Positions 1-32,640 of a stretch of 32,890 bases of DNA are shown one piece after another; the stretch's first letter is position 1, and the number at the start of each line of letters is the position of its first letter. The notes below the pieces were generated by a model that saw only the letters and a list, made by a program, of their open reading frames with translations, ran no database searches and was not told the origin of the DNA. The position numbers were made by a program, and so were the translations under genes. Origin of the DNA: Treponema sp. (GTDB lineage Bacteria; Spirochaetota; Spirochaetia; Treponematales; Breznakiellaceae); NCBI GenBank assembly GCA_031267685.1, contig JAIRYV010000022.1:1-32890 (forward strand), read 5' to 3'.

Positions 1-119
1 GCTATAGCCTTTGGGTGAAGAGCTATAGCCTTTGGGTGAAGAGCTATAGCCTTTGGGTGAAGAGCTATAGCCTTTGGGTGAAGAGCTATAGCCTTTGGGT
101 GAAGAGCTATAGCCTTTGA
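1..119. repeat. Tandem direct-repeat array 1. The 21-bp unit gctatagcctttgggtgaaga occurs as 5 perfect copies plus a 14-bp partial copy. The unit contains the perfect 8-bp palindrome gctatagc. The array may continue upstream of the window edge.
   Basis: Read directly: identical copies at 1-21, 22-42, 43-63, 64-84 and 85-105, and a truncated copy at 106-119. Confidence 0.95.
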
Positions 120-131
120 TTCCGATACTTG

Positions 132-160
132 TTGACATTGAGAAAAAGATAGCTTACACT
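132..160 (+). promoter_or_regulatory. Putative sigma70-type promoter: TTGACA (132-137), a 17-nt spacer, then TACACT (155-160). It lies immediately 3' of array 1 and about 140 nt upstream of the CDS starting at 302.
   Basis: Consensus -35 hexamer, 17-nt spacing, 4/6 match at -10, and the orientation fits the downstream gene. Confidence 0.45.
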
Positions 161-301
161 CAATCCATGAAGATACAGAGCATTTTCAAAGCGCATGCCT
201 ATCTAAGCGATGAACAGCAGGGCTTTTTGAACAAGACTCGTAGATGCCGCTGCTTTCTGTATAAGCCCCAGGCTTTAGGCACGGGGTTCTGACAGGCATA
301 T

Positions 302-1537
302 ATGGGTAAGACAAAGCTCCCTAATCAGACACAGCTTAAAGAAATCTATGACGCATACTTAGCTGTGCGGGTTTTAGTTACCAAAGACCTTGAACAGAGT
401 ATAGAAAAAGCGCTCTGTCCCATGCAATCTCACCCTACTGTCAAGGGCAGAGTTAAAGAGTTCGATAGCTTTTATAAAAAGTATCTCGGCCTGCTTAAAA
501 AAGGCGGCTCTGGGCTGCTTATAACCGATTTGGTCGGAATCAGGGTTATCTGCCCCTTCTTTGAGGATATTTTTGTTGTTGAAAATGTCCTCAAACAAAC
601 CTTTGAAGTTGTTGAAGTTGAACGCAAAGGGTCAAACTATTCTTTCAAAGAATTCGGCTATGAATCGACCCACCTGCTGATAAAACTTCCTAGCGAAGTC
701 AGAGAACAACGGGGGGATTGCGGTATTGACGTGGTTGAAGTGCAGATTCGTACAATACTGCAGGATGCCTGGGCTGAGGTTGAGCATGAGCTGGTGTACA
801 AGGCTGAGTTTACCCCTTTTGATGAACCTATGAAGCGTAAAATCGCGGCGCTCAACGCTAATCTCTTTCTTGCTGATACAATCTTTCAGGAAATCAGAGA
901 ACATCAGCGTAAGCTCAATGGCGAACTGGGCAAACGGCGCGGCTCTTTTTTTAAAAAGGTCGAAGAATCGACTGACCGGTTTTTGTTTGTCGAAGAAACC
1001 CTCGCGAACATTCGCGCAGGCGGTGAGCAAAGCGACCTGCTCCCGACCATACATTCCTCTCGTGCATCCATCGACGAGCTTTTGCTCAATGCCCTCTATG
1101 CCCATAACCGGAATCAGTTTGAGCAGGCTATTACGTTTTACACTCGCATCCTTGAGCTGCATCCCGATAACACCGTCTGTTCCCTTATTTATAAACATCG
1201 GGGCATGGCGAACTTTGCCCGCTCTCACTACGAGGATGCTATCACGGACTTTACTCAGGCGCTGGAACTGGACCCCAGCTCCTACAAGGCTCCGTATTAT
1301 CGGGGAATCGTGAAGGCTATATTACAGCGGTTCTCCGAAGCCATTGATGATTTCAGTCTTTCGCTTACCATGAACGCCTATCAGCCTTTCTGCCTGTATC
1401 GCCGCGGTCAAGCCTACTACCATGTTGGAGACCTGCTCCAGGCACTCACGGACTGTGAATCCGCGCTGAAACTAGAACCTAATTGTGAATCTGTACTGAA
1501 ATTCAAGGAGTTCCTGCTTGAGAAGCTCAAGATGTGA
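302..1537 (+). CDS. RelA/SpoT-family (p)ppGpp synthetase domain protein of the small-alarmone-synthetase type, with C-terminal TPR repeats
   Basis: N-terminal half carries synthetase-domain motifs (LITDLVGIRVICPFFEDI, YESTHLLIKLP, VEVQIRTILQDAWAEVEHELVYK). The C-terminal roughly 150 aa has 3-4 TPR-like repeats (AITFYTRILELHPDN, YEDAITDFTQALELDPSS, LLQALTDCESALKLEPN). ATG start. Confidence 0.9.
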   Translation: MGKTKLPNQTQLKEIYDAYLAVRVLVTKDLEQSIEKALCPMQSHPTVKGRVKEFDSFYKKYLGLLKKGGSGLLITDLVGIRVICPFFEDIFVVENVLKQTFEVVEVERKGSNYSFKEFGYESTHLLIKLPSEVREQRGDCGIDVVEVQIRTILQDAWAEVEHELVYKAEFTPFDEPMKRKIAALNANLFLADTIFQEIREHQRKLNGELGKRRGSFFKKVEESTDRFLFVEETLANIRAGGEQSDLLPTIHSSRASIDELLLNALYAHNRNQFEQAITFYTRILELHPDNTVCSLIYKHRGMANFARSHYEDAITDFTQALELDPSSYKAPYYRGIVKAILQRFSEAIDDFSLSLTMNAYQPFCLYRRGQAYYHVGDLLQALTDCESALKLEPNCESVLKFKEFLLEKLKM

Positions 1538-1638: not shown

Positions 1639-3360
1639 ATGCGACATACAGGAGCAAGGATTTTGATTGAAGCCCTGATTGAACAGGGCGTGGATACGGT
1701 GTTTGGGTATCCGGGCGGCAAGGTGCTGGATATTTATGACGAGCTGTACCAGTGCCGGGACCGGATTCGGCATATTCTGGTGAGCCATGAGCAACATGCG
1801 GCGCATGCTGCCGACGGCTATGCCCGCTCAAGCGGCAAGGTGGGAGTTTGCCTTGCCACCTCTGGCCCGGGCGCGACTAATCTCGTAACCGGCATTGCCA
1901 CAGCCTATATGGACTCAGTACCGTTGGTGGCAATCACGGGCAATGTCGGCAGATCACTCTTAGGCAAGGACAGCTTTCAGGAAGTAGACACCGCTGGCAT
2001 CACCATGCCCATTGTTAAGCATAACTGGATCGTAAAAAGTGTAGAAGACCTGGCTGAAATCGTCCGCGAGGCGTTTATCGTGGCTGTTAGTGGCCGCCCT
2101 GGTCCCGTGCTTATCGACATTCCTGCAGACATCAGCGCGCTTGAGGCGGAAGTGCCTCTGATAGGAACGCTGGCGTCGCTCCCGATTCAGGGTGCGCGGG
2201 CATGGCGCCTGTCCCAGCGGAGTCTGAGGCAGACCTTTACGGAGGCTGACATTGACCGCGCTGTTAGTTTACTGGTCAAGGCAAAACGTCCGGCGATTTA
2301 CGCAGGCGGCGGCGTGATCATTTCTGGCGCATCTGCCAGACTGGTCGCACTTGCCGAGCGGCTGGACGCGCCAGTGAGCCTCAGCCTCATGGGGCTGGGA
2401 GCCATGCCATATGAACATCCGCTCTATACCGGCATGGTTGGTATGCACGGAAGTGTGGCGTCTAACAAGGCTATACAGCAGGCCGACCTCCTGATAGCAA
2501 TCGGCGTGCGTTTCTCAGACCGCGTTACTAGTAGTCCCGACAAGTTTGCGAGTAAGGCCAGGGTTTTGCACTTTGACATTGATCCGGCTGAGATTAACAA
2601 AAACATTCAAGCCGAAGTTTCGGTCATTGGGAATATCCACGATACCCTGAGCCATGTGCTTGAGAAGCTCCCGGCAGACATCAAGACCGAGTGGAATGAC
2701 GATATTAGCACATGGAAAAACGAGGTTCCTCATACGCATCACCGGAAAACCGCGCTCTATCCGCGCTTTATCATTGAAGAAACGGCAAAGGCGCTCAGAA
2801 CACTCGACAATGACGCTATTATTGTTACTGACGTTGGGCAGCATCAGATGTGGACAGCGCAGTTCTATCCCTTTTCAAAGCCGCGTTCCTTCCTTACTTC
2901 CGGCGGACTGGGAACCATGGGCTTTGGGCTTGGCGCAGCCTTGGGCGCAAAGGTCGCCAACCCGTTACGTCCGGTTGTGCTTTTCACTGGCGACGGCTGT
3001 TTCCGCATGAACTGCGCTGAACTGGGAACCTTGAGCGCCTATCACTTGCCCGTGCTGCTGGTGGTGTTCAGTAACGGCGTTCTCGGCATGGTGAGGCAGT
3101 GGCAGACTATTTTTTACGAAGGCCGCTACTCGGAAACCAACCTTGACCGTCCGCCTGATTTCGTGAAACTGGCCTCTGCATATAGCGTTGCAGGCTTCCG
3201 CGCTGACAGCGAAGCCAGCTTCATGGCCGCGCTTGAGGCTGCCATGCGGGAACTTGCCACAGGCCGTGCCGCTGTCATTGACGCCCATATCGACAAGGAC
3301 GAGCGCGTATTGCCAATGGTTCCCGGTGGCAAACCCATTGACGAGCAGATTCTGTCGTAG
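1639..3360 (+). CDS. Acetolactate synthase large-subunit-type thiamine-pyrophosphate enzyme. No small-subunit gene is adjacent, so it may be a catabolic ALS or a related TPP enzyme.
   Basis: 574 aa. The N-terminus reads GARILIEALIEQGVDTVFGYPGG. A TPP-binding motif (GDGCFRMN) is present. The whole length is AHAS-like. The ORF track begins at a TTG at 1621, but the ATG at 1639 fits AHAS N-termini better. Confidence 0.85.
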   Translation: MRHTGARILIEALIEQGVDTVFGYPGGKVLDIYDELYQCRDRIRHILVSHEQHAAHAADGYARSSGKVGVCLATSGPGATNLVTGIATAYMDSVPLVAITGNVGRSLLGKDSFQEVDTAGITMPIVKHNWIVKSVEDLAEIVREAFIVAVSGRPGPVLIDIPADISALEAEVPLIGTLASLPIQGARAWRLSQRSLRQTFTEADIDRAVSLLVKAKRPAIYAGGGVIISGASARLVALAERLDAPVSLSLMGLGAMPYEHPLYTGMVGMHGSVASNKAIQQADLLIAIGVRFSDRVTSSPDKFASKARVLHFDIDPAEINKNIQAEVSVIGNIHDTLSHVLEKLPADIKTEWNDDISTWKNEVPHTHHRKTALYPRFIIEETAKALRTLDNDAIIVTDVGQHQMWTAQFYPFSKPRSFLTSGGLGTMGFGLGAALGAKVANPLRPVVLFTGDGCFRMNCAELGTLSAYHLPVLLVVFSNGVLGMVRQWQTIFYEGRYSETNLDRPPDFVKLASAYSVAGFRADSEASFMAALEAAMRELATGRAAVIDAHIDKDERVLPMVPGGKPIDEQILS

Positions 3361-3363
3361 CTT

Positions 3364-3984
3364 TCACCTTTCCGTGAGTGCGCGCCAGGGGTTTTGCCTG
3401 AAGCGGATGAGCAGATACAGCCAGCCAAAGGCAAAACCCGCGAGGTGTGTTAAATGAGCTACGCTGCGCTGAAGCCCGAAGAATGAAGACGCCAGCTCAA
3501 TAATGGTGAAGACTAGCACCATAACTGGCGCACGCATGGGCAGAATCCCCCAGATGGCGATCACCGCATTGGGAAAAAACGTGGCGTAGGCGAGCTGTAC
3601 TGCGAAGATAGCGCCAGACGCGCCCAGAAGCCAGACCGTGTACGAGCCAGTGAGACAGTACACCGCAAGGGAAAAAGCGCCGGCAAGAAAGCCCGTAATC
3701 AGGTAGTAGCAGAGAAACTCAACGCTCCCCGTATACCGTTCAACCTGAGTCCCGAACATGAACAGGGCAAGCATATTAAGCAAGAGGTGGCTGATATTGC
3801 CGTGAGCAAACATATAGGTAAACACTTGCCATACCCATTTATTGCCGATTACCGCCAGAGGGTTCATGGCAAGGTAGACGCTAGTCATTGGGGCAAGCTG
3901 TTGTAGAGCAAAAACTACGACATTGATGCCAATGAGGATCAAGGCTACGTTGCCGGATTGGTAAAAACGATTAACTATTCTCAT
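3364..3984 (-). CDS. Rhomboid-family intramembrane serine protease
   Basis: 206 aa and polytopic. It has the GASGAIF (GxSG) catalytic-serine motif and a downstream AHLTHLAGFAFG histidine helix. It is convergent with the upstream gene, with only 3 nt between stop codons. Confidence 0.85.
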   Translation of the reverse strand: MRIVNRFYQSGNVALILIGINVVVFALQQLAPMTSVYLAMNPLAVIGNKWVWQVFTYMFAHGNISHLLLNMLALFMFGTQVERYTGSVEFLCYYLITGFLAGAFSLAVYCLTGSYTVWLLGASGAIFAVQLAYATFFPNAVIAIWGILPMRAPVMVLVFTIIELASSFFGLQRSVAHLTHLAGFAFGWLYLLIRFRQNPWRALTER

Positions 3985-4096
3985 AGTATGAAGATACGCT
4001 TGTTCTTGACGCTCGTAAAGCCATGATGAAGCACTTCCCTTTCTCTTAGTAGTTTACTATGATATATACACAAGTTTAATAATTAAGGAAGTTTGT

Positions 4097-5287
4097 ATGA
4101 CTGAACGTCAGGTCTATATTGATTATAACGCGACTACGCCTCTCCGTGCGGAGGTCAGAGCTGCTATGGTAACAGATCTCGATGTCTATGGAAATGCATC
4201 GAGTCAGCACGCACACGGGCGTTTAGCTCGTGCGCGGATTGAGGAAGCACGGGCTTCAGTGGGGGCGCTGGTGGGAGCGCCGCCTGATCGTATCATTTTT
4301 ACGTCAGGAGGCTCAGAATCAAACAACACTGTGTTCCAGACCATGCGCCAGCAGGGAACAGCTGAGGATGGGCATGTACTGGGCGGAAGAAGTGAGATTA
4401 TCACAAGCGCCATTGAGCATCCCTGTGTGCTTAACTCAGCCGCATTCCTGAAAAGTCTGGGGTTTAAGGTAACGTTCCTACCGGTTGACGGGCAGGGACT
4501 GGTGAAGCTGGACGCGCTCAAGGCTGCGCTTAACGAAAATACCCTCTTTGTGTCAATAATGATGGCCAATAACGAGATCGGGACCGTGCAGGATATCAAG
4601 GAAATCAGCCGGCTTGTGAAAGAGGCTGGCGCGTTCCTGCATAGCGACGCGGTACAGGCTGTGGGCAAGATTCCGGTGCACGTGGATGAGTTGGGCCTTG
4701 ATTATCTCACTATGTCTGCGCATAAGATTTACGGGCCAAAAGGGGTTGGGGCTTTGTATGTGAGGAAGGGAGCGCCTTTACTTCCCCTTATTCACGGCGG
4801 TCATCAGGAAGACGGGTTCCGTGCTGGAACATACAATAATATCGGCATACTGGGCTTTGGGCTGGCGGCTTCACTGGCGCTTGGGGAACTTGGCTCGTAT
4901 AGCCGGCACACAGCTGCCCTGCGCGACCGGCTGCGGGACGGCTTGCTGAAAAGAGTGCCAGACATCAAGATTAATGGTCATCCCACAGCAGTGCTTCCAA
5001 ACACGCTGAATGTTTCGTTTCCAGGAGCAGAAGGCGAGTCGATTCTGCTTTCAATGGACATTGAGGGTATTGAAGCATCGACCGGTTCAGCCTGCGCTTC
5101 AGGCAGCCTTGAGCCATCGCATGTACTCATGGCTATCGGCGTTGGGCCAGAGCTTGCCCACGGTTCCATCCGCTTCAGTCTTGGCTGGAACCTGAATGTG
5201 GACGATATTGACTATATCCTGCAAAAACTGCCGCCCATTATCATGCGGCTTCGTGCCATGTCCACTCTACGAAAGAAGGAGGAATAA
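4097..5287 (+). CDS. nifS: Cysteine desulfurase (NifS/IscS family, class V aminotransferase)
   Basis: 396 aa. PLP-lysine region SAHKIYGPKGVGALYVRK. C-terminal active-site Cys loop ASTGSACASGSLEPSHVL. AAGGAAG RBS before the ATG. Confidence 0.9.
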   Translation: MTERQVYIDYNATTPLRAEVRAAMVTDLDVYGNASSQHAHGRLARARIEEARASVGALVGAPPDRIIFTSGGSESNNTVFQTMRQQGTAEDGHVLGGRSEIITSAIEHPCVLNSAAFLKSLGFKVTFLPVDGQGLVKLDALKAALNENTLFVSIMMANNEIGTVQDIKEISRLVKEAGAFLHSDAVQAVGKIPVHVDELGLDYLTMSAHKIYGPKGVGALYVRKGAPLLPLIHGGHQEDGFRAGTYNNIGILGFGLAASLALGELGSYSRHTAALRDRLRDGLLKRVPDIKINGHPTAVLPNTLNVSFPGAEGESILLSMDIEGIEASTGSACASGSLEPSHVLMAIGVGPELAHGSIRFSLGWNLNVDDIDYILQKLPPIIMRLRAMSTLRKKEE

Positions 5288-5288
5288 T

Positions 5289-5882
5289 ATGGCTGGCTGG
5301 TTGTATTCAGATACGGTGAAAGAGCATTTCACCAATCCCCGGAACGCACTATTCGAGGATGAAGCGGATTTCCCCTGCGATGCACGTGGACAGACCGGAA
5401 ATATCAAGTGTGGGGATCAGATGCTCATGCTCCTCAGAATCAAGGACGATGTCATTACCGACGTGCGCTGGAAAACCTATGGCTGCGCTAGCGCTATTGC
5501 CTCGACAAGTATGCTGTCCGAGACCATCAAGGGCATGAACATCAGGGAGGCGTACTCGATTAGGCCGGAAGACCTGGTGCAAAAGCTCGGAGGTCTGCCC
5601 GATTACAAGATACATTGCTCGGTATTGGGGGACAAGGCGCTGCGAGCAGCTATTGATGACTATCTTGAAAAAACCGGACGCGCCGGTATGCTCAAAGAAG
5701 CGGCAACCACGATCTGCCAGTGTTTAGGCATCACTGATAAGGACATTGAAAACGCTTTTCAGAATGGCGCCCACAACTGGGAACAGCTCCAGCAGGCCAC
5801 CAAGATCGGTACAGTCTGTGGAAACTGTAAAGAGAAAGCCCTAGAACTATTGCACGAGTTCGTTCATATCTACGGTATTTGA
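5289..5882 (+). CDS. nifU: NifU-type Fe-S cluster scaffold: an IscU-like N-domain plus a BFD-like [2Fe-2S] C-domain
   Basis: The ATG at 5289 is preceded by AAGGAGGAATAAT, and it is 1 nt after the nifS stop. IscU motifs are present (CGDQMLM, GCASAIASTSM, HCSVLGDKALRAAIDDY). The C-terminal portion is CQCLGITDKD...CGNCK. The ORF track's 5196 start is a spurious 5' extension overlapping nifS. Confidence 0.9.
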   Translation: MAGWLYSDTVKEHFTNPRNALFEDEADFPCDARGQTGNIKCGDQMLMLLRIKDDVITDVRWKTYGCASAIASTSMLSETIKGMNIREAYSIRPEDLVQKLGGLPDYKIHCSVLGDKALRAAIDDYLEKTGRAGMLKEAATTICQCLGITDKDIENAFQNGAHNWEQLQQATKIGTVCGNCKEKALELLHEFVHIYGI

Positions 5883-5928
5883 CACGACTGCTTATAACAA
5901 GAGCCGCCTTCTGGCGGCTCTTCGTGTC
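5881..5928. terminator. Bipartite hairpin between the convergent nifU and 5928..8888 genes. Inner stem agagccgcc / ggcggctct (5900-5921, loop ttct). Outer stem gacacga / tcgtgtc.
   Basis: Perfect 9-bp GC-rich inner stem flanked by a perfect 7-bp outer stem, positioned between two convergent stop codons. T-tracts are weak (ttcgtgtc on plus; ttgttataag on minus). Confidence 0.45.
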
Positions 5929-8888
5929 TAAAGCCTTTCGGTCAGGTCATTCGCGTTAAGCATGACCGGCTGACCACCAGCACTTTGTATCAGGATAATA
6001 TCGCCCTGAAAACTGGCCGTCGCATAAGGGTGTATCTGGGTCGCGGATTTCGCGGCAAGCGGGATAACGCCATCGGCAATCGCAGCAGTATCAAAGCGGG
6101 CAAGATAAAGCGCACTGCCTGAACTGACAATGGTGTATATGCTAGCCTCCCGAACCCAGAGCGGCGCGTCAGCATACAGAGAATCAACACCATTGTCGCT
6201 GACCTGTGCGCCAACACCCATGTTTTCCTGATCAATTTGAATAAGCTGGACAAGATTGCCCGGCAATGTCAGTGTCGCAAAAACCTCCTGCTCTTCTCCC
6301 TCACCAATGGCTATTAAGGAACGCGCATTGATGGTGGTGAGGTTTGAAATATTGGTCCTTGCGCCTGTCGCAAGGTTAAGCTCTATGAGAACACCTAAGG
6401 GCGAATCAGACTGCGTCAACTCAATCATAATAACTTTTGTTCCACCCTCATCTTCACTAGCAGTAAAGCCACCCGCCACTGCCTGTCGCGCTGCCTCTTC
6501 CTCAGCCACCTGTTGCGCTGCCTCCGCTTCGGCTGCAAGCCGCGTAGCTTCTTCCGCCGCCTGCCGTGCTATCTCAGCCTGTCGTACAGCCTCTTCCGCC
6601 GCTTGTCGTGCAAGCTCCGTCTGTTGCGCTGCCGCGTCTGCGCTTTGACCCGGGACATTCGCCGCTGCCGCTTGCGCTGTATCAGCCTGCCGTGCCGCTT
6701 CTTCCGCCGCGTCTTGTGCTATCTGCGCCTGCTGCGCCACCGCTTCATCCTGTGGCACGATGTTTTCCGCTGCCTGCTGCGCTATCTCGGCCTGTCGCGC
6801 CGCTTCTTCCGCCGCTTGCCGTGCTATCTCAGCTTGTCGCGCTGCCTCTCCCGCTGCCTGCTGCGCTATCTCGGCCTGTCGTGCCGCTTCTTCCGCCGCC
6901 TGCTGCGCTATCTCCACCTGACGCGCTGCCTCTTCCTCAGCCGCCTGTTGCGCTGCTTCCGCTTCGGCTGCAAGCCGCGTAGCTTCTTCCGCCGCTTGCC
7001 GTGCTATCTCAGCCTGACGTGCCGCCTCTTCAGCCGCTTGCCGCGCTATCTCAGCCTGCTGCGCCACTGCTTCATTCTCAGGTGCCGCTTCATCTGCCGC
7101 CTGCCGTGCTATCTCCGCCTGTCGCGCCGCCTCTTCCGCTGCTTGCCGCGCTATCTCAGCCTGCTGCGCCACTGCTTCATTCTCAGGTGCCGCTTCTTCT
7201 GCCGCCTGCCGTGCTATCTCGGCCTGACGCGCCGCCTCTTCAGCCGCTTGTTGCGCTATCTCAGCCTGTTGCGTTGCCTCTTCATCCGCCGCCTGCTGAG
7301 CCACTGCCTCAGCCTGTTGCGTTGCTGCTGCCTCAGTCGCCTGCTGAGCTGCTGCCTCAGCCTGTTGTGTTGCCGCTTCATCCGCCGCCTGCTGAGCCGC
7401 TGCCTCAGCCTGCTGCGCTGCCGCTTCATCCGCCGCCTGCTGCGCTGCCGCTGCCTCAGCCGCCTGCTGCGCTATCTCAGCTTGCCGTGCGGCTGCCGCT
7501 TCGGCAGCAAGCCGCGAGGCTTCCTCCGCCGCTTGCCGTGCTATCTCAGCCTGTCGCACAGCCTCTTCAGCCGCTTGCCGCACAAGCTCTGTCTGCTGCG
7601 CTGCCGCATCTGCCCCCTGACGCGGGATACTCGCCGCCGCCACTTGCGCTGCATCAGCTTGACGCGCCGCTTCGTCAGCCGCACTTTGCGCTATCTCAGC
7701 CTGTCGCGCCGCTGCTTCATTCTGCGGCATAACGTCTTCCACTGCCTGTTGCGCTCTCTCAGCCTGACGCGCCGCCTCTTCAGCCGCACCTTGCGCTATC
7801 CCAGCCTGTCGCGCCGCTTCGTCAGCCGCCTGACGCGCTATCTCGGCCTGCCGCGCCGCCTCTTCAGCCGCCTGACGCGCAGCTTCCACTTGACGCGCTG
7901 ACTCGGCCCGTCGCTCAGCTTCCGCAGCAATGCCGCCATTCTGATCAATAGCAATATCCTCACGATCGCTTTGAGCATCAAGCATCTTCCGCTCTGCCAT
8001 ACGCTCCGCCTCATCGGCCAGCCTACGCTGTTCTTCCAACGCCCTTTCCCGATCAGCAAGCTCATTCTCAATACGCCGCGCCTCTTCCGGCGACGCCTGT
8101 TGCACCCGCCGACGCTCCGCCGCAATCCTGGCTTCCTCCACCGCAATAGCTTCACGTAAATCCGCAGCCCGCGCCTCAGCCTCGTCCGCCTCACGCTCCT
8201 TTAACTCAACCATCTCTTTCCGTACGTCAAGCCCCTGATTCGGATCACGCCGCAACTCCTCAAGCACGCCCTCATCGCTCACCGCCGATGTGTCTATGGC
8301 ACTCAATGACCCAGGACTCGCGTTACCAAGCGGGATTACAATGAGCGTCCGCCCTGGCCATTCATCAAAACGTACAGAAAGACCAACACGATCAGCGCTC
8401 AAGTCTCCCAGAACCGCTTGTTTATAACGAGAACTGAAAAAGTCCCAGTTACCCCGATAAAATGCGTTATAAATCGTAATATATTGGGCAAGTAACCGCG
8501 CATCTGCCGCCGAGTAGTTATAGGCCCCTTCAAGATAGCCCTGTATGATGAGCCTCAGATTCCGTATGTGGTCTACTCCCACGCCAGACCCTAAGCCAAA
8601 AATGTCTGCATCTATCCGCTCTCCTTCTGGAGCTGTAACCGAATGAATCACAAAGTACCGATTCATAGCGCCTGAACGAGTCGCCCCACGCCGAACCGCA
8701 AGACCCTGTTCATAACCAATGTTCCGAATCTGCGCAACCGTATCAATCCGCGTAACCGGCCCCGTATAATTATAGAACTCAATCGACCCTTGCCCCTGCT
8801 GTAACTCATTGGTATTCACCTGCGCACATAACAATGACGCAAGCAACCCCATCAGTGCAGCGCAAACATAGCTAATCCGTTTATTCAT
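5928..8888 (-). CDS. Large secreted or surface protein (986 aa). It has an N-terminal signal peptide (possibly a lipoprotein), a globular N-domain of about 300 aa, a central Ala/Gln/Glu/Arg-rich coiled-coil-like tandem-repeat region of about 450 aa, and a C-terminal domain of about 170 aa.
   Basis: MNKRISYVCAALMGLLASLLCAQ signal sequence. AAAGAGG RBS upstream. Central repeats of the AARQAEIA(R/Q)QAAEEA type are encoded by near-identical DNA repeats. Confidence 0.85.
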   Translation of the reverse strand: MNKRISYVCAALMGLLASLLCAQVNTNELQQGQGSIEFYNYTGPVTRIDTVAQIRNIGYEQGLAVRRGATRSGAMNRYFVIHSVTAPEGERIDADIFGLGSGVGVDHIRNLRLIIQGYLEGAYNYSAADARLLAQYITIYNAFYRGNWDFFSSRYKQAVLGDLSADRVGLSVRFDEWPGRTLIVIPLGNASPGSLSAIDTSAVSDEGVLEELRRDPNQGLDVRKEMVELKEREADEAEARAADLREAIAVEEARIAAERRRVQQASPEEARRIENELADRERALEEQRRLADEAERMAERKMLDAQSDREDIAIDQNGGIAAEAERRAESARQVEAARQAAEEAARQAEIARQAADEAARQAGIAQGAAEEAARQAERAQQAVEDVMPQNEAAARQAEIAQSAADEAARQADAAQVAAASIPRQGADAAAQQTELVRQAAEEAVRQAEIARQAAEEASRLAAEAAAARQAEIAQQAAEAAAAQQAADEAAAQQAEAAAQQAADEAATQQAEAAAQQATEAAATQQAEAVAQQAADEEATQQAEIAQQAAEEAARQAEIARQAAEEAAPENEAVAQQAEIARQAAEEAARQAEIARQAADEAAPENEAVAQQAEIARQAAEEAARQAEIARQAAEEATRLAAEAEAAQQAAEEEAARQVEIAQQAAEEAARQAEIAQQAAGEAARQAEIARQAAEEAARQAEIAQQAAENIVPQDEAVAQQAQIAQDAAEEAARQADTAQAAAANVPGQSADAAAQQTELARQAAEEAVRQAEIARQAAEEATRLAAEAEAAQQVAEEEAARQAVAGGFTASEDEGGTKVIMIELTQSDSPLGVLIELNLATGARTNISNLTTINARSLIAIGEGEEQEVFATLTLPGNLVQLIQIDQENMGVGAQVSDNGVDSLYADAPLWVREASIYTIVSSGSALYLARFDTAAIADGVIPLAAKSATQIHPYATASFQGDIILIQSAGGQPVMLNANDLTERL
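6480..7910. repeat. Intragenic near-perfect tandem DNA repeats with periods of about 48 and 108 bp, encoding the coiled-coil repeat region of the 986-aa protein
   Basis: For example, 7024-7115 and 7133-7224 are near-identical, as are 6486-6560 and 6925-7000. The ORF track's plus-strand Arg/Cys/Leu-rich and Pro-rich ORFs here are frame artefacts of the repeats. Confidence 0.85.
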
Positions 8889-10082: not shown

Positions 10083-10295
10083 ATTGATAGCTCAGTATAC
10101 CGTTATTTACAAATAAAATCAAGATATCATGGCCGATTCTCTGCAGAGCTATGAACTATATGAACCAGGCGAATTTTTATCTTTGATCATAAGGAGAAAC
10201 GAAGACTATCCTATTCTGTTCGTGTGGTTCGGGTAGTTCATGGTACAATTCTTTTCTATGCGTTTATCATGATCGATTCCGCTCCTAAGCAAGAG

Positions 10296-10555
10296 CCTTT
10301 TCCGAGCTTAGGAACGTATCCTTTCCTAAGCTCGGAGTGTACCCTTTCCTAGCTTAGGAGTGTACCCTTTCCTAGTATTAGGAAAGCACCCTTTCCTAAT
10401 ACTAGGAGTGTACCCTTTCCTAGTACTAGGAAAGCACCCTTTCCTAATACTAGGAAAGCACCCTTTCCTAATACTAGGAAAGCACCCTCTCCGAGCTTAG
10501 GAAAGCACCCTAAACTCGGCTAAGAGCGTATCTTCTCCGAGCGCTGGGAAAGTAT
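10296..10555. repeat. Tandem direct-repeat array 2: about 11 copies of a 23-24 bp unit (consensus cctttcctaatactaggaaagcac). Each unit is itself an imperfect palindrome (cctttcct-N6-aggaaag).
   Basis: Read directly. Central copies are perfect or nearly perfect and flanking copies are degenerate (ccgagcttagg variants). The array is intergenic, 210-470 bp upstream of the dxr start. Confidence 0.9.
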
Positions 10556-10591
10556 CGAGCAAGGAAGTGAGAGTGATGCTGGTTATGAAGG

Positions 10592-10641
10592 TTTAGCGAA
10601 GCACTGGGGATGTTGATCTTTATGCTTCGCTAAAGATCAAC
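10592..10641. other. Pair of mutually exclusive perfect hairpins: stem A tttagcgaagca (10592-10603) with tgcttcgctaaa (10623-10634), and stem B gttgatcttt (10612-10621) with aaagatcaac (10632-10641)
   Basis: Perfect 12-bp and 10-bp inverted repeats with overlapping arms. Located 45-90 bp 3' of the DUF368 gene stop. No U-tract follows on either strand. Confidence 0.4.
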
Positions 10642-10684
10642 GATTGAAGGATTCACATCAAGAGCGAAACGCTATGCTCACCTA

Positions 10685-11506: not shown

Positions 11507-11985
11507 ACCAATAACTCCCAATAGCCCACGTTCAGCCAGTTTCCGAGCTTAAAGCCAATCTCGTCAAGCTGGCCTATCTTACGGAAGCCTAGCTTCTCAT
11601 GCAAGCCCACGCTCCCTTCATTAGGAACGGTGATTCCCGCAACCATCGCGTGTAAGGAACGCCTCTGCGCCTCGTGTATCAGGCTTGAGAGAAGCGCTGT
11701 GCCGATACCTTTTCGCTCATGCCCCCTTTTGATATAGACGGAATCTTCTACCGCAAAACGATAGGCGCGCCGTTCCTTCCATTTATTCAAATAGGCATAG
11801 CCAAGAACCTCGTTGTTTTCCTCCCAGACGATGTATGGATACTCAGCGCTTATTGTGCGGATACGCGCCTCCATGGTGTTAAGCGAAACCGGCGCTTCCT
11901 CAAAGCTGATGGCGGTTTGCTCAATGTAGGGATTGTAGATAGCAGCTATGGCAGCTGCATCAGCAACGTTTACTGGACGAATCAT
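11503..11985 (-). CDS. GNAT-family N-acetyltransferase (phosphinothricin-acetyltransferase-like)
   Basis: 160 aa. MIRPVNVADAAAIAAIYNPYIEQTAISFEE with an acetyl-CoA motif RKGIGTALL. Its start lies 2 nt after the flotillin stop. Confidence 0.85.
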   Translation of the reverse strand: MIRPVNVADAAAIAAIYNPYIEQTAISFEEAPVSLNTMEARIRTISAEYPYIVWEENNEVLGYAYLNKWKERRAYRFAVEDSVYIKRGHERKGIGTALLSSLIHEAQRRSLHAMVAGITVPNEGSVGLHEKLGFRKIGQLDEIGFKLGNWLNVGYWELLV

Positions 11986-11987
11986 GC

Positions 11988-13661: not shown

Positions 13662-13712
13662 ATAAGCTCCTTAGAATATCTGTTAGTGAGTAGTTGCTCA
13701 TGACTACTTAGT

Positions 13713-22722: not shown

Positions 22723-22970
22723 AGAGAGTTGTACATCTCAAATCAGAGAGTTGTACATCTCAAACCAGAGAGTTGTACATCTCAAATCAGAGAGTTGTAC
22801 ATCTCAAACCAGAGAGTTGTACATCTCAAATCAGAGAGTTGTACATCTCAAATCAGAGAGTTGTACATCTCAAACCAGAGAGTTGTACATCTCAAACCAG
22901 AGAGTTGTACATCTCAAATCAGAGAGTTGTACATCTCAAATCAGAGAGTTGTACATCTCAAACCAGAGAG
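22723..22970. repeat. Tandem direct-repeat array 3: 11 copies of the 22-bp unit agagagttgtacatctcaaa(t/c)c. The unit contains the near-palindrome gagTtgtacaTctc.
   Basis: Read directly. The only variation is t/c at one position. The array lies in the 5' region of the HU-like gene. The three ORF-track ORFs here are frame artefacts. Confidence 0.95.
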
Positions 22971-26340: not shown

Positions 26341-28320
26341 TCACAGCTTGTCGATAAGCATTGAGCATTTCCCCGAAGGGATAGGCAGGGTCTTTTTCTT
26401 CTTCTCCAGTATATTGATAGTGAAGTAGTAGAGTTTTTCGCTTTCCATGTGGATTTCCCAGCCCCTGCCGCTCTTGTTCGAGAGTATGGTGATCATGTTC
26501 TTCTTGAGCGAGAGGTTTTCCACACCCATGATTTCCAGATTGGGAATGATCCAGTCTACGGTTTTACGGGGCAGGGAAATGAAAAGCCCTACAATGTTTT
26601 CTATCATAAGGCAGATTGTTGACAGTGCGTCATAGGTGAGGTACTGGACACGAGGGAAGTCTGGGTTATCAGGCCAGATAGCGTGTCCCTCCTGCAGGGG
26701 AAGATAGGCTTCCCAGAGATTGCCCCGGTGTGAGCTGTGATGACCATTGGCATGGCCTTCGGTCATGGAATCAAGCACGAAGTAGAGGTGGCGTATGGCG
26801 CACTCGCGCGCCAGGTCCCAGCGCTGGTAACGCTCCAGTCCTTTTATCACCATGAAGGTGAGGTGAGGATAAACCGAACCCCGATAACCGCAGCCGTTTT
26901 CGTCAAAACAAGGTTCATTCACTGCCAGTGTGGGGAAGGGATGAGGAGCGCCAAAAAACTGGGGGTCCTGTAGCTTGGCGATGAGCCGTTCAGCCTTATC
27001 ATCATTAGGGATTTCTGCAAGGAGTGGCCAGTAACCTGCGATGGTTTTTACCGGAATCTGTTTCTCGTCCCGGTCAATATCGTAGTAAAAGCCATCATCG
27101 GCGTTCCACATGAGGCTGTTAATCCGCGTCTTGAGTGAAAAGTAGATTTTCTTATAGTGGAAGCTGGCATCCTTATCATTAAGAATATCCGAGAGCGCTG
27201 ACATATAGAGTACATTGATGGCCATCATGGTATTGAAGTCCATGGGATAGACTGTCTGTTCACGCGGGGTGTTCTCCATGTCTGTAGCGATGAGAGGCAC
27301 TTCGTAAAGACCATTAGGCCGTTTGAAAGTGGCGTCAATCCACTCAATATACCTATGCAAAACAGGTAGTATGTCCTTCACCCGTTTTTTGTTTGCTGAC
27401 TTATGATAGAGGTTGAATTCAGCCCAGGCAAACAGGGGGATTCCAATGCCCTCTGGGTTATCAGGGGTAAACACAGGGAGTCCGGTCTCGATACTGTAGG
27501 CATTACGAATCGCTCCGTTAGGTTCCTGACGCTCATAAAAGATATCAAGGGTTGGGTGCGCTTGATAGATGCGGTTTGAGTAAACAAGGAAAAACGAGGA
27601 GTAGATTGCATCGGCCTGCCGCGTCACGGAGCTGCCCGGGTATGCAAAGAACTTTCCTTCGATGATGTGCGGTGTATTGAAGAGCGGCTTCTCCTCAGCC
27701 TGAGCCGGCTCTTCTGGCAACACTGATTCAGCGCCTTGCTCAGGCGTGCTTCCCTCAGCCTGAGCCGGCTCTTCTGGCAACGCTGGTTCAGGCGTGCTTC
27801 CCTCAGCCTGAGCCGGTTCTTCTGGCAACGCTGGCTCAACGCCTTGCTCAGGCGTGCTTCCCTCAGCCTGAGCCGGCTCTTCTGGCAACGCTGGCTCAAC
27901 GCCTTGCTCAGGCACGCTTCCCTCAGCCTGAGTCGGCTCTTCTGGCAACACTGGCTCAGCGCCTTGCTCAGGCACGATCTCGGTTCCTGCCGATATGGTT
28001 TCCGCGCTTGCCGTACTGTTACCAGGCACTGAAAGCACTATGGGTAAAACCATCGGGGAATCTGCCAATATGACAGGCGGCGAAAGTTCCTCGTTAACCA
28101 TGATTTCCACCGGGAAATCAGGAACCGTAGCAGCTTGCGTCGCTTCATCAGCGGACGGTACGTCAGATGTGACGTCTCCTCCAAGCGCGGTATGTACTAT
28201 GGCTACCTTCTCATTACCCGAACTCCAGCAATCTTGAATCCACGCCCACGTTTTATCATAGATATCAACGAAATCCTGATCGTAAAAATGTATTTTGGGG
28301 AAATCACGCTTTATCAACAT
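26341..28320 (-). CDS. Cytoplasmic glycoside hydrolase of the (alpha/alpha)6-barrel type (tentatively GH63 / MGH1 / GDE_C-like), interrupted by a Pro/Glu-rich 20-aa tandem-repeat segment
   Basis: 659 aa with no signal peptide. A large conserved C-terminal catalytic-looking domain. Five repeats of PEQGVEPALPEEPAQAEGST near the N-terminus. Confidence 0.7.
   Translation of the reverse strand: MLIKRDFPKIHFYDQDFVDIYDKTWAWIQDCWSSGNEKVAIVHTALGGDVTSDVPSADEATQAATVPDFPVEIMVNEELSPPVILADSPMVLPIVLSVPGNSTASAETISAGTEIVPEQGAEPVLPEEPTQAEGSVPEQGVEPALPEEPAQAEGSTPEQGVEPALPEEPAQAEGSTPEPALPEEPAQAEGSTPEQGAESVLPEEPAQAEEKPLFNTPHIIEGKFFAYPGSSVTRQADAIYSSFFLVYSNRIYQAHPTLDIFYERQEPNGAIRNAYSIETGLPVFTPDNPEGIGIPLFAWAEFNLYHKSANKKRVKDILPVLHRYIEWIDATFKRPNGLYEVPLIATDMENTPREQTVYPMDFNTMMAINVLYMSALSDILNDKDASFHYKKIYFSLKTRINSLMWNADDGFYYDIDRDEKQIPVKTIAGYWPLLAEIPNDDKAERLIAKLQDPQFFGAPHPFPTLAVNEPCFDENGCGYRGSVYPHLTFMVIKGLERYQRWDLARECAIRHLYFVLDSMTEGHANGHHSSHRGNLWEAYLPLQEGHAIWPDNPDFPRVQYLTYDALSTICLMIENIVGLFISLPRKTVDWIIPNLEIMGVENLSLKKNMITILSNKSGRGWEIHMESEKLYYFTINILEKKKKTLPIPSGKCSMLIDKL
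27693..27975. repeat. Intragenic 60-bp tandem DNA repeat of about 4.8 copies, one of which carries a 12-bp deletion. It encodes the PEQG...AEGST repeats of the glycoside hydrolase.
   Basis: Read directly: unit cctcagcctgagccggctcttctggcaacgctggctcaacgccttgctcaggcgtgcttc. Confidence 0.9.
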
Positions 28321-29294: not shown

Positions 29295-30626
29295 ATGCAA
29301 TTCAAATCTACCTTGCAATCTTCTTCACCCAGCCTTGCCATGCCCCTAGTCTCTTTCAAAGATGCGGTTCTCCAGTGTCTGCCGCCAGAGGGCGGCTTGT
29401 ATGTTCCAAGCTCGGTGTTGGATATGCGGCAGTTCTTTTTGTACATGGACGCCAGCACAACGTACCCGGAACTCGTTGAGACGCTTACACCAGTGCTTTT
29501 GCAGGGAGACCTTAACCCAGTTTCTGCGGCACTGCTTGCCCAGAGTGCCTTTAACTTTGAGCCTGAACTCGTGCAACTCGACGAGCGATTCTCACTCCTA
29601 AAGCTGTACAATGGACCAACCGGCCTTTTTAAGGACTTTGGTACTGGTTTCCTTGCGGCAGCTATGGAGGAATTCCTCAAGAACAACGAGCATAGCATGG
29701 TTCTGTCAGCAGTGCGAGACGCCACTGGCATAAGCATTGCCCGCGCATTTGCCGGACGACAGAACATAACGTGCTGTCTGCTCTACCCATCAGGCCCAAT
29801 TCACGGCCTTGACCTGTCTACGTTTGTACCTAATGGCGGGAACATCCTTCCCATTCAAATACGAGGCACTTTTGACGACTGCCAGCGGCTCACCACCGAG
29901 AGCATCTATGACACCCCTTTCGCCGAGCGTTACCATATCACCACTGCCAACGCCCGTAATCCAGGACGACTCCTGCCTCAATCCTTCTATTACATCTACG
30001 CTTTCCTCAAGCTGAAAAAGCAGTTGCTAGGCAACCTGATATTCAGTGTGCCTTCCGGTAACTTCGGAAACCTCATCGCGGGCCTATACGCATGGAAGTT
30101 TGGTTTACCAGCAGGTGGTTTTATCGCGGCCATGAACGCTAATAACTCTGTTGGCGACTTTATTCAGGGTAAACCATTCAAACCCAAGCTGCCAATTGCC
30201 ACGATTTCCCCGGGGCTGGACGTGGCCGTACCTTCAAACTATGCGCGACTATCATCGTTCTACGCAGAAGCGCCTGCGGTTATGCGAAACATGGTGTTTC
30301 CCGCATCCATTGACGATAAGACGACCGTTGCCACCATTGGTCAGGTCTGGAAGAAGTATGGCGTCTTGCTTGATCCTCATGCAGCAGTCGCCTTTGCCGC
30401 TGCAGAACGCCTGATCGAGGCTCACGGCCTCTCAAGCAGCGAAGCACATATCGTGGTGCTTGCCACTGGCCATCCAGCAATAGAGGGCGGCCTTATCAGG
30501 GAAATCACCGGTCAGACTATCAAGATGCCAGAACACCTCATTGCCCTGCGGAAAAGAACTGACCCCATAGCGATTATCGATCCTCAGCTTGAGTCCCTAG
30601 AAAGCGCTATAGCGAGCTGTGTTTAA
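29295..30626 (+). CDS. thrC: Threonine synthase (long form)
   Basis: PLP-lysine motif GPTGLFKDFG. Length and N-terminal region are ThrC-like. An alternative start at 29340 (MPLVSFKDAV) is possible. Confidence 0.9.
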   Translation: MQFKSTLQSSSPSLAMPLVSFKDAVLQCLPPEGGLYVPSSVLDMRQFFLYMDASTTYPELVETLTPVLLQGDLNPVSAALLAQSAFNFEPELVQLDERFSLLKLYNGPTGLFKDFGTGFLAAAMEEFLKNNEHSMVLSAVRDATGISIARAFAGRQNITCCLLYPSGPIHGLDLSTFVPNGGNILPIQIRGTFDDCQRLTTESIYDTPFAERYHITTANARNPGRLLPQSFYYIYAFLKLKKQLLGNLIFSVPSGNFGNLIAGLYAWKFGLPAGGFIAAMNANNSVGDFIQGKPFKPKLPIATISPGLDVAVPSNYARLSSFYAEAPAVMRNMVFPASIDDKTTVATIGQVWKKYGVLLDPHAAVAFAAAERLIEAHGLSSSEAHIVVLATGHPAIEGGLIREITGQTIKMPEHLIALRKRTDPIAIIDPQLESLESAIASCV

Positions 30627-30661
30627 CAAGCAATGTGCATTAGCAGTGCCGTATACCTTGT

Positions 30662-32092
30662 ATGAGATTGACGCCAGTTTTATGTGCCGCGTTTGGCGCT
30701 GCACTCGCTTATTACAGCGGTAGTACGTTTTTACTCGTGGTATTCGGTTTTGTTGTCAGCCTTATGCGGACGCTTGCCTATACGCCTATACGACTTGGGT
30801 CTCATTACAGTTTTCGTGTAGTGAGGGTCTCTGTTATTGCCTTTACCATCGGCCTGAGTGTGGGGCTTGCTGCTGCTAATGTTGCCAGGGGCGTGAAACC
30901 TCGATTGGGTTTGTCCATAAGCAAGAACATCGTGGGACTGCGCGGAACGCTCCGCGACGACCCACGGGCTTTTTCTCAAGGTGGCGGCATAGGCTCTGTT
31001 GCGCTCAAACGGGTGTCTGGCTCAGGCGGCCTGAGCGTGTCCGCGTCAGGAAACGTACAGGTGTTTTTTCCAACCACAACGATTCCACGAGTGAAAGGCT
31101 TTGGACGGGGCGCTGAGGTATATATCGAAGGCACGTTTCAGCCAGCTAAAGACGGGACGCGGGAACAGACGTTTCGCGCATACACTGTTCATGTTATAGG
31201 CAATGCTCCGGCTCTGGAGCGCCTGCGAACCAGTGTCCGCACGCGGCTGGTGGAACGCTTCAGTGGCTTTGAGTGGGGCGGACTTGCCGCTGCCTTGCTT
31301 CTGGGCGTGAAGGACGAGCTTGACACTTCGCTTGCCGTTGCGTATCAGAACGCGGGCTGCTCTCACATACTGGCGCTGTCTGGTATGCACCTTGCCATAA
31401 TCGCCGCGCTCATTGCCTTTGTCCTGAAACGGCCATTAGGGATATGTCCTGCCGCGCTTATCGGTTCTGCACTCATTCTCCTCTATGTATACCTTGTAGG
31501 AAACCTGCCGTCCCTGAATCGCGCCGCCATCATGTATCTGCTAGGAACGCTTATACTCCTTGCCACCTTACCTAAGCAGGGTGCATCACTTCTGGGCATG
31601 AGTTTTCTGATACAACTCATACTCCAGCCAGAGGCTGCTCATACCCTATCTTTCATCTTGTCCTATCTAGCGCTTGCCGGCATTTTATCCATCGGCGAAG
31701 TCATCTATGCGCTTATTCGTGGTTCACTTCCTGACCTTGTAGCAAAGCCGCTTGCCGCCTCACTTGGCGCGTTTCTAGCAACTGCCACTGTAGTAGCCGC
31801 CTGTTTCGGTGTTCTGCGCCCTATCGGTATCATTGCAAGCCTAGCCCTCGTCCCGCTCACTACGGTATTCATGCTCATAGCGATACTTTTTCTTGCGGTG
31901 AGCAATGTCGCGTCTCTCTTATCCCTGCTCTACAACGTGCTTATTGCGCTTTCGACTCTTGCAGCCCGCGCTCCAGCCCTACCTGCTGCGCCTCTTCTGG
32001 TTCTGCTCGTATCTGCGCTCCTTATTACGCTTAGCCTCTTTTTACACTACCGGCGTGCTATAACACCCTTGCCTTTAGACATGGAGATATAA
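30662..32092 (+). CDS. comEC: ComEC/Rec2-family DNA-uptake channel protein (DUF4131 plus competence domain). No metallo-beta-lactamase C-domain.
   Basis: Competence-domain signature YQNAGCSHILALSGMHLAIIAALIAFV. Polytopic. The gene ends immediately before repeat array 4. Confidence 0.85.
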   Translation: MRLTPVLCAAFGAALAYYSGSTFLLVVFGFVVSLMRTLAYTPIRLGSHYSFRVVRVSVIAFTIGLSVGLAAANVARGVKPRLGLSISKNIVGLRGTLRDDPRAFSQGGGIGSVALKRVSGSGGLSVSASGNVQVFFPTTTIPRVKGFGRGAEVYIEGTFQPAKDGTREQTFRAYTVHVIGNAPALERLRTSVRTRLVERFSGFEWGGLAAALLLGVKDELDTSLAVAYQNAGCSHILALSGMHLAIIAALIAFVLKRPLGICPAALIGSALILLYVYLVGNLPSLNRAAIMYLLGTLILLATLPKQGASLLGMSFLIQLILQPEAAHTLSFILSYLALAGILSIGEVIYALIRGSLPDLVAKPLAASLGAFLATATVVAACFGVLRPIGIIASLALVPLTTVFMLIAILFLAVSNVASLLSLLYNVLIALSTLAARAPALPAAPLLVLLVSALLITLSLFLHYRRAITPLPLDMEI

Positions 32093-32640
32093 GGAGTGGG
32101 AAGCCTCTTCTAACTAGAAGAAGGCGGCTCTTCTAACTAGAAGAAGTCAGCTCTTCTAACTAGAGTGAGATGACTCTTCTAACTAGAAGAAGGCGACTCT
32201 TCTAACTAGAAGAAGGCGACTCTTCTAACTAGAAGAATGTGGCTCTTCTAACTAGAGTGGGAAGCCTCTTCTAACTAGAAGAAGGCGACTCTTCTAACTA
32301 GAATGAGATGACTCTTCTAACTAGAAGAAGGCGACTCTTCTAACTAGAATGAGATGACTCTTCTAACTAGAAGAAGGCGGCTCTTCTAACTAGAGTGAGA
32401 TGACTCTTCTAACTAGAATGAGATGACTCTTCTAACTAGAAGAAGGCAACTCTTCTAACTAGAATGAGATGACTCTTCTAACTAGAAGAAGGCGATTCTT
32501 CTAACTAGAATGAGATGACTCTTCTAACTAGAATGAGATGACTCTTCTAACTAGAAGAAGGCGCTTACCTACCTTATGACAAGACTCTTCTAACTAGAAG
32601 AAGGCGCTTACCTACCTTATGACAAGACTCTTCTAACTAG
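32093..32640. repeat. Tandem direct-repeat array 4: 22 copies of a 23-bp unit, each an invariant 13-nt core ctcttctaactag plus a 10-nt variable segment (aagaaggcgN, a[ag]tgagatga, aagaagtcag, aagaatgtgg, agtgggaagc). The last 2 units carry an identical 20-bp insertion.
   Basis: Read directly. It starts 1 nt after the comEC stop and ends at a CTAG immediately before the putative IS left end. Confidence 0.95.

Follow-up and report, generated by a model that had tools for sequence, protein, structure and literature searches.

The window analysed here is an entire contig of 32,890 bp from a termite-gut metagenome-assembled genome (MAG) entered as 'MAG: Treponema sp.', and it carries four arrays of short tandem repeats, called arrays 1 to 4 below (Table 1). 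The arrays were located with Tandem Repeats Finder (TRF) and by direct reading of the sequence, and were split into their units. All four were found again at the positions given by a first-pass annotation of this DNA, with contiguous copies arranged head to tail and outside long open reading frames (ORFs); arrays 1 and 3 lie, as it had noted, 5' of a RelA_SpoT+TPR gene and a HU-HIG gene, respectively. The annotation had also described the arrays as unrelated in sequence, and in a blastn-short search of all units against about 2 Mb each unit matched its own array only. No dispersed copies of any unit were found in this search, whose target included 150 kb of the clade and was smaller than a whole genome.

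The genes around the arrays are of an ordinary chromosomal housekeeping kind, as judged from a Pfam scan of 28 ORFs. They encode a RelA_SpoT+TPR protein, a TPP enzyme, a rhomboid protein and NifS/NifU, followed by a P83/100-like repeat protein, Dxr, GNAT, Band 7 and ABC permease proteins, by HU-HIG, CNNM/CBS/CorC, HD and glycoside hydrolase proteins, and by LpoB, threonine synthase and ComEC. These ORFs include no rep, par or cas gene, and Rfam and tRNA scans of the window detected no RNA family and no tRNA. The relatives found through the Dxr, ComEC and RelA_SpoT proteins are termite-gut treponemes, among them Leadbettera, Hollandina and Breznakiella at about 60-64% identity. A replication origin, which the first-pass annotation had wanted checked, was excluded: the DnaA-box search of the window revealed no cluster (10 one-mismatch matches against 5.25 expected, none of them at the arrays) and the composition profile showed no origin-like switch. 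A phage, plasmid or iteron origin of the arrays was likewise rejected, as viral scans with all four units and plasmid BLAST with arrays 2 and 4 returned no match.

Orthologous loci were fetched through homologues of Dxr, ComEC and RelA_SpoT, and non-coding arrays of three or more copies were counted in them. The clade sample comprises 150.6 kb in 12 non-redundant loci from about ten close relatives, whose Dxr proteins are at least 81% and mostly 87-90% identical. Two sets of DNA served as controls, one of loci from other spirochaetes and from gut bacteria (1.31 Mb) and one of unrelated metagenome sequence (0.53 Mb); loci matched by the CNNM protein at no more than 28% identity, with no orthologous loci among them, were used as unrelated control DNA. 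TRF detected 13 clear arrays and one ambiguous array in the clade, which corresponds to about 86 per Mb, compared to 3.8 and 5.7 per Mb in the two controls. When the window, which had been picked for its arrays, was left out, 9-10 arrays still remained in 118 kb. These densities bear out two earlier claims, that four arrays in 33 kb are far more than chance would give and that they form a lineage-specific class: relatives carry a 21-24 bp array about every 10 kb, and the controls are nearly devoid of them. Unit lengths in the clade were 21 bp (six arrays), 22 bp (three), 23 bp (three) and 24 bp (one, plus the ambiguous array), and no array with a period of 10-20 or 25-60 bp was present in the 150.6 kb. 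A published survey of prokaryote satellites gives medians of 0-3 per Mb and bacterial maxima of about 23 per Mb, under detection rules that differ from ours (PMC6749651). Literature searches returned no report of such arrays in Treponema or in termite-gut spirochaetes. What appears to be new is the density and the uniform unit length of hyperabundant non-coding minisatellites in one bacterial clade.

Coding repeats were rejected as an explanation, since a period of 22 or 23 bp is incompatible with coding. The ambiguous case is the 24-bp array of locus L131, which keeps an ORF open (8-aa DPDLRELx repeats) and has its variation in one contiguous 8-nt block, like array 4; it is probably non-coding. 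Gene callers place ORFs of 150-188 aa without a Pfam match over several 21- and 24-bp arrays (Table 1). These are probably spurious proteins, called over arrays whose period is a multiple of three.

The arrays proved not to be conserved between congeners: they are absent or replaced at orthologous sites whose flanking proteins are 82-90% identical. At the RelA_SpoT 5' site, array 1 is found in the window, L135 has no array, and L136 carries an unrelated array of fifteen 21/22-bp units. The promoter itself is kept in L135 and L136, and a three-genome alignment shows invariant GTTGAC and AGCTTA blocks. In the gap between the VCA0040-like gene and dxr, about 520 bp including array 2 stand where L001 and L138 have about 15 bp. 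The orthologous gap measures 81 bp in both relatives and is homologous to that of the window at its two ends only, namely a 17-bp inverted-repeat arm by the stop codon and the dxr promoter-like segment 10094-10122; array 2 lies at least 174 bp upstream of the latter. The site past the CNNM gene contains neither an array nor a unit-like sequence in L133. At the ComEC 3' end, three different arrays of 22-23-bp units occupy the same site (unit CTCTTCTAACTAGAAGAAGGCGA in the window, CCGAGCGTATCAAACACCTTGAT in L133 and CTAGACCCCGATGGGGTGAAGAC in L139); no array is present in L131, where ComEC overlaps ksgA, or in L134, which has a 592-bp gap.

Table 1. Coordinates of the arrays and of other features in the window and in the compared loci.
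Sequence	Feature	Position	Strand	Details
Window	Array 1	1-118/119		21-bp unit GCTATAGCCTTTGGGTGAAGA, 5.6 copies, 100% identical (TRF)
Window	Promoter-like site, RelA_SpoT/TPR gene	132..160	+	TTGACA-17-TACACT, outside array 1
Window	RelA_SpoT/TPR gene	302-1537		
Window	P83/100-like (Borrelia) gene	5928-8888		
Window	Coding tandem repeats, P83/100-like gene	6482-7898		59-65% GC
Window	Gap between VCA0040-like gene and dxr	10083..10684		602 bp, holds array 2
Window	dxr promoter-like site	10122-10094	-	Conserved with L001
Window	9-bp repeat	10218-10239		2.4 copies
Window	Array 2	10296-10555		11 units of 23-24 bp, consensus CCTTTCCTAATACTAGGAAAGCAC (TRF, unit splitting)
Window	Hairpin	~10615-10644		11-bp stem
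Window	Gap orthologous to L001 6165-6239	14253-14341		No array
Window	HU-HIG promoter-like site	22664-22636	-	
Window	Array 3	22723-22970		22-bp unit AGAGAGTTGTACATCTCAAA[T/C]C, 11.3 copies, 96% identical (TRF)
Window	MGH1-like glycoside hydrolase gene	26341-28320		
Window	Coding tandem repeats, glycoside hydrolase gene	27687-27973		60/108-bp periods
Window	ComEC end overlapped or abutted by array	32060-32092		
Window	Array 4	32093-32640		23-bp period, 22 copies; one partial and one cut unit beside 19 of 23 bp and two of 43 bp
Window	IS4/IS5-family element, left end	32641..32890	+	Putative end GGTGTGTTCACATTACACG, runs off contig
Window	IS transposase N-terminus (DUF4096)	from 32680		Pfam PF13340, E=1.2e-17
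L001	Arrays, window site without array	6165-6239; 14444-14782		
L003	Array, window site without array	5576-5800		
L131	Arrays, window site without array	5197-5739; 9698-9906		
L131	ORF called over array	5175-5741		
L003	ORF called over array	5355-5807		
L136	ORF called over array	2-541		
L133	Array overlapping or abutting ComEC stop	11389-11455		
L139	Array overlapping or abutting ComEC stop	6133-6169		
L001	P83/100-like gene	11196-14033		
L003	P83/100-like gene	8934-11480		
L140	P83/100-like gene	1973-4153		
L077	Short arrays	5872-6038; 19038-19212		22-bp units
L075	Short arrays	54-133; 13409-13600		22-bp units
L093	18-bp tandem unit	8396-8450		TAACCTGAAGGTCACACG
L107	18-bp tandem unit	3856-3912; 4729-4855		TAACCTGAAGGTCACACG
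L007	Short arrays	2545-2592; 16068-16108; 17583-17636		15-18-bp units, about 3 copies

The extra DNA at array 2 was also considered as a miniature inverted-repeat transposable element (MITE). This was rejected, as reading of the junctions by eye revealed no terminal inverted repeats and no other copies were found. The 17-bp inverted arms that bracket the window gap (TAGGTGAGCATAGCGTT ... AACGGTATACTGAGCTA) are native flanks that occur in L001 and L138 as well; there, only about 45 nt separate them, and they form a stem-loop in the space from the VCA0040-like gene to dxr. In the window, the gap also contains a hairpin and a short 9-bp repeat (Table 1).

Single-copy counterparts of two arrays were found at the ComEC 3' end. 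The single-copy ComEC tail of L131 contains two degenerate units of 23-24 bp (GGAGAGCGGGCTTACTCCCCAAA and GGAGAGCAGACTAGACCACACATC) that align, at the same position, with the first two units of the L139 array, which has more copies; the progenitor search gave P=0.02 for the L139 unit against the L131 sequence. The orthologous gap of L134 holds one copy, AGAAGCGCCTTCATCTAACTAGGTGAAG, of a sequence that matches the array 4 unit (P=0.004), and the two 43-bp units of array 4 carry '...taccttatgacaaga', which by eye resembles the ancestral ComEC tail 'acccttatgacgaca'. Judging from these two cases, array 4 and the L139 array, at least some arrays appear to have arisen in place from local sequence.

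Array 4 begins 1 base after the ComEC stop codon. Positions 1-14 of its unit are invariant (CTCTTCTAACTAGA), and positions 15-23 consist of a handful of recurring variants, two of which are common. Its last unit is cut, from which we infer that an IS5-family element inserted into the array after the CTAG of that unit, although a single junction is visible; the array may be longer than what is seen, as its last unit is interrupted by the element. The CTAG present in every unit may make the array a target of the IS4/IS5 family. Since the arrays of the window, L133 and L139 overlap or abut the stop codon (Table 1), the last 10-25 ComEC residues are encoded by repeat units. The C-terminal residues of ComEC are wholly different between relatives, in a protein of 467-489 aa, and the arrays remodel the C-terminus of the gene.

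The first-pass annotation had built each unit around a short palindrome and had interpreted the arrays as phased protein-binding sites, iteron- or operator-like, rather than minisatellites. We examined the dyads by comparing the perfect-arm length of each consensus unit with shuffled versions of itself, and the hairpins by single-strand DNA folding of three units, expressed as a z-score. Among the four arrays, the perfect-arm test was beyond chance only for array 2 (8-bp arms with a 4-nt loop, P=0.001) and array 4 (7-bp arms, P=0.009). Folding gave z-scores of -4.6 for array 2 and -2.5 for array 4, with non-significant values for array 1 (-1.6) and array 3 (-1.2). The central units of array 2 are near-identical, each of them a hairpin with an 8-bp stem and a 4-nt loop. 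Array 4 has the full 7-bp dyad in only about half of its units, and its invariant block is not symmetric. The palindromic description therefore stands for arrays 2 and 4, where the dyads are strong, applies loosely to array 3, which has an imperfect 14-bp dyad (GAGtTGTACAtCTC), and fails for array 1, whose dyad is at chance level. Over the clade, dyads exceeded chance in arrays 2 and 4, L003 and L005b, and did not in arrays 1 and 3 and seven other unit types; the sister arrays L001a, L001b, L131a and L133a have no dyad at all. Hairpin units are enriched overall, an excess driven by four arrays (a rough, hand-combined Fisher P of about 3e-5). This enrichment could reflect slippage promoted by hairpins, or the amplification of intergenic DNA that was already rich in palindromes.

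Binding by dimeric sequence-specific proteins, at phased sites comparable to iterons, operators or the sopC/parC centromeres, would agree with the strong dyads of arrays 2 and 4, with a unit length akin to that of 22-bp iterons, with the HU-HIG DNA-binding gene adjoining array 3, and with the operator-like aspect of the short palindromic 22-bp arrays, 3-4 copies long, that L075 and L077 carry in gut bacteria unrelated to the clade. Each array has its own sequence, however, and so would need its own cognate protein. The arrays are not kept at orthologous sites, while the promoter-like sites are, which largely refutes such binding; no rep, par or partner regulator gene was found; the dyad is absent or insignificant in most arrays; and the context is one of chromosomal housekeeping genes, without a DnaA-box cluster or plasmid similarity. 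HU-type proteins, moreover, do not bind DNA in a sequence-specific manner. Given arrays that are unique, not retained with their promoters, without partner genes and without a general dyad, we regard sequence-specific binding as very unlikely and do not follow the annotation on this point. A multi-hairpin RNA acting as a CsrA sponge was rejected too, as reading of the units revealed no common GGA-loop motif and no shared sequence.

The predicted core promoters of the RelA_SpoT/TPR, dxr and HU-HIG genes lie outside the arrays, and the arrays stand close to some of them. A conserved -35 hexamer follows 13 bp downstream of the end of array 1 and about 22 bp downstream of that of L001a; array 3 lies 26 bp past the CNNM/CBS/CorC stop codon and starts 59 bp upstream of the HU-HIG -35 hexamer. 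These distances, together with the recurrence of arrays at the RelA_SpoT 5' and ComEC 3' positions and with the 21-bp period, which keeps helical phase, would suit copy-number-variable cis-regulatory 'rheostats' or contingency loci, whose length would change the geometry of the upstream DNA or the distance of an activator at the promoters of RelA_SpoT, dxr and HU-HIG and, at the convergent ComEC/ksgA genes, the 3'-end structure or insulation. Against such a role, arrays are found without bias in tandem, divergent and convergent gaps, close relatives have no array at the same promoters, and periods of 22-24 bp lose phase. The arrays also contain no terminator-like features: intrinsic terminators were rejected, as no terminator-like site was found in or at array 2 or array 3 and the units have no T runs. 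Altogether, a regulatory function of this kind seems to us a rather poor prospect. Beside these promoters we observed that an ATG near 22605, preceded by a GGAGG ribosome-binding site, is a more likely start of the HU-HIG ORF than the listed GTG at 22668; with the GTG, the promoter-like site would fall inside the ORF. The L001 array at 6165-6239 stands about 22 bp upstream of a -35-like hexamer that is conserved. Of its three full 21-bp units, two include TATCCACA, which agrees with the DnaA box at 8 of 9 positions; the orthologous gap of the window has no array.

By their head-to-tail units of 10-100 bp and their presence varying between related genomes, the arrays behave like minisatellites of the variable number of tandem repeats (VNTR) type. 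They bear the marks of unstable satellites, with degenerate edges, higher-order periods and contig breaks inside arrays: array 2 has degenerate edge units and higher-order periods of 48 and 72 bp, and periods of 42-48, 63 and 72 bp occur across the clade arrays. In our judgement, the four arrays are probably non-coding minisatellites of this type and part of a lineage-specific burst in an uncultured, Breznakiellaceae-like clade of termite-gut Treponema. A local segment of about 21-24 bp, often with a hairpin-forming dyad typical of intergenic DNA, would be duplicated in place by slipped-strand mispairing. The proto-array would expand, contract and homogenise through replication slippage and unequal sister-strand exchange, leading to degenerate edges, higher-order periods of 2-3 units, quick replacement of the unit sequence and frequent loss. 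Arrays would persist where they are harmless, that is upstream of core promoters, past stop codons and in dispensable C-terminal tails. They would have no conserved sequence-specific partner, and their effects on neighbouring genes would be incidental and dependent on copy number. We infer both the motor, slippage with unequal exchange, and the neutrality of the process.

Several observations weigh against an origin by neutral slippage and exchange. All 13-14 clade arrays fall within a 4-bp span of unit length, which neutral slippage does not predict and which points to an additional constraint or mechanism. The recurrence of arrays at two sites in different genomes, RelA_SpoT 5' and ComEC 3', could mean a position-specific function, and in arrays 2 and 4 the hairpin region is less variable than the loop or spacer, which could mean structural selection. 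The search for progenitors of arrays 1, 2 and 3 and of the L133 array in array-less relatives gave no significant match. The variation observed, with arrays absent, present or replaced, is all between congeneric genomes. Finally, the sample amounts to 150 kb of short-read MAG contigs, in which array lengths may be mis-assembled.

The constancy of the unit length calls for particular attention, as it holds whatever the sequence, GC content (29-65%) or hairpin content of the 13-14 non-coding arrays, and units of 22-23 bp are common to the different arrays of the ComEC 3' end. Our working guess is that the 21-24 bp peak results from two factors: duplications become rarer with length, and RecA-dependent unequal exchange needs about 20-30 bp of identity, the minimal efficient processing segment (MEPS), so that in combination they would favour units slightly longer than this threshold. 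Shen and Huang reportedly set this minimal segment at 23-27 bp in 1986. For bacteria, a minimal identical segment of at most about 30 bp has been reported for RecA-dependent exchange (PMC8918686). Alternatively, a sequence-independent 'ruler' could make or select the arrays, either through staggered nicks two helical turns apart, made by an integrase-, transposase- or nuclease-like enzyme and followed by fill-in and re-ligation, or through an abundant nucleoid protein that favours arrays phased at two turns. With the enzyme, the duplication of 21-24 bp would be akin to that of target sites or CRISPR repeats; in either form, the arrays would record a mutational or chromatin process not yet described. 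The constancy just described and the restriction of the trait to one clade, as expected of a lineage-specific gene, would agree with this. Yet no candidate enzyme lies beside any array, the sole transposase belonging to an ordinary IS5-family element in array 4; ordinary satellite dynamics would account for the degenerate edges and higher-order periods; the RecA threshold could produce the same peak without a new enzyme; and the sample is small. We consider such a ruler unlikely. More broadly, a sequence-independent process of the clade that creates or preserves two-turn (21-24 bp) tandem duplications, at about 100 arrays per Mb, might consist of a staggered-cut and fill-in activity, a nucleoid-protein register or a sharp recombination threshold; taken together, these remain a tentative proposal, to which we give limited credence.

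Since the contigs in question derive from short reads, the arrays might be assembly artefacts, produced by loops in de Bruijn graphs or by chimeric joins. Array 1 invites this suspicion, as its 118-119 bp of perfect repeats lie at a contig end and approximate the largest assembly k-mer (contigs of the sister MAG are named k119), and arrays lie at the ends of several contigs. That arrays break assemblies is shown by the contigs of the window, L005, L136 and L131, each of which starts inside one. On the other hand, arrays 2 and 4 contain many aperiodic variants, the single T/C variable position of array 3 follows an aperiodic order along the array, the L001 and L131 arrays reappear in independent assemblies (JGI, and Logan L002 and L132), and control loci from similar assemblers have no arrays. 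An artefact is hence hardly credible: the existence of the arrays is secure and their copy numbers alone are in doubt. For array 1, cut off at the first base of the contig, the copy number is presumably a lower bound.

Among known systems, the closest are bacterial and archaeal minisatellites, such as the loci used in multiple-locus VNTR analysis (MLVA) and the intergenic satellites of Leptospira interrogans and short-unit satellites of Methanosarcina in the 2019 survey of Subirana and Messeguer (PMC6749651). They share with the Treponema arrays non-coding units of some tens of bp in head-to-tail order, a presence and copy number that differ between relatives, degenerate edges, higher-order periods and the lack of a partner gene. 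The clade differs in its density, about 86 per Mb compared to bacterial maxima of about 23 per Mb under other detection criteria (PMC6749651), and in its units, all of 21-24 bp instead of a broad distribution rich in multiples of three. Unlike the transposed satellite families of Leptospira, each Treponema array has a unique unit.

Plasmid iterons are likewise contiguous direct repeats of about 22 bp, close to two helical turns; the gamma origin of R6K has seven contiguous 22-bp iterons. Here, in contrast, there is no Rep gene and no AT-rich, DnaA-box origin module, the context is chromosomal, copies reach 22 or more, and sequences are unique to each array and not kept in relatives. Partition sites offer a second comparison: sopC of F consists of 12 repeats of 43 bp with an inverted repeat in each unit, and parC of R1 and pSK41 is a site of the same kind. 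Arrays 2 and 4 resemble them as tandem arrays with a dyad per unit, but at least four unrelated arrays occur on one segment and are not conserved, and no parA, parB, parR or sopAB gene lies nearby; no parA/parB or parM/parR operon was found among the window ORFs or the called genes of the related loci. With CRISPR the arrays share partly palindromic repeats of about 21-24 bp and, in array 4, a conserved 14-nt core followed by a variable block. They differ by contiguous copies without spacers, by variable blocks of only 7-9 nt that recur, and by the lack of cas genes and of an Rfam CRISPR match. REP, BIME and MITE sequences are also short, intergenic and hairpin-forming, but REP elements form one family at hundreds of loci in alternating orientation, whereas here each unit occurs at one locus, head to tail.

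Repeats of other kinds were seen in the window and in the control loci. The GC-rich coding repeats of the P83/100-like gene have periods of 42, 105 and 435 bp, and the length of its protein varies among relatives (986, 945, 848 and 726 aa). The glycoside hydrolase gene contains coding repeats as well, and similar ones occur in its L134 and L139 orthologues. L077 and L075 represent gut bacteria unrelated to the clade, namely a Bacteroidaceae MAG and Ca. Treponema faecavium. Their short arrays have 2-3.6 copies and distinct palindromic cores (AAGATAgtTATCTT; TTTGCCGAcGGCAAA), and look more like operators or iterons than the arrays of the focal Treponema do. L093 and L107 have in common an 18-bp non-coding tandem unit of up to 7 copies, which may represent a dispersed repeat family as it occurs at more than one locus in unrelated metagenome contigs. 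Three short arrays were also seen in L007, which belongs to a termite-gut spirochaete of more distant kinship (MS502-67); some of them have palindromes (e.g. AGACCTTCGGTCTGT), and all have a period shorter than in the focal clade.

In practical terms, the arrays fragment short-read MAGs of termite-gut spirochaetes, give rise to spurious ORF calls of 150-188 aa (L003, L131, L136) and remodel gene 3' ends, of which the ComEC tails are an example. Their use as strain markers of high resolution is conceivable as well. They would provide a natural system for asking what sets the unit length of prokaryote minisatellites, be it a recombination threshold, a repair defect, a dedicated enzyme or chromatin phasing. 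A two-turn duplication process, if true, would be a new mutational or chromatin phenomenon in bacteria and not ordinary VNTR noise. Should the density and the 21-24 bp unit length apply to whole genomes, few known bacteria would be as rich in satellites as this lineage, with the archaeal Methanosarcina as the nearest comparison.

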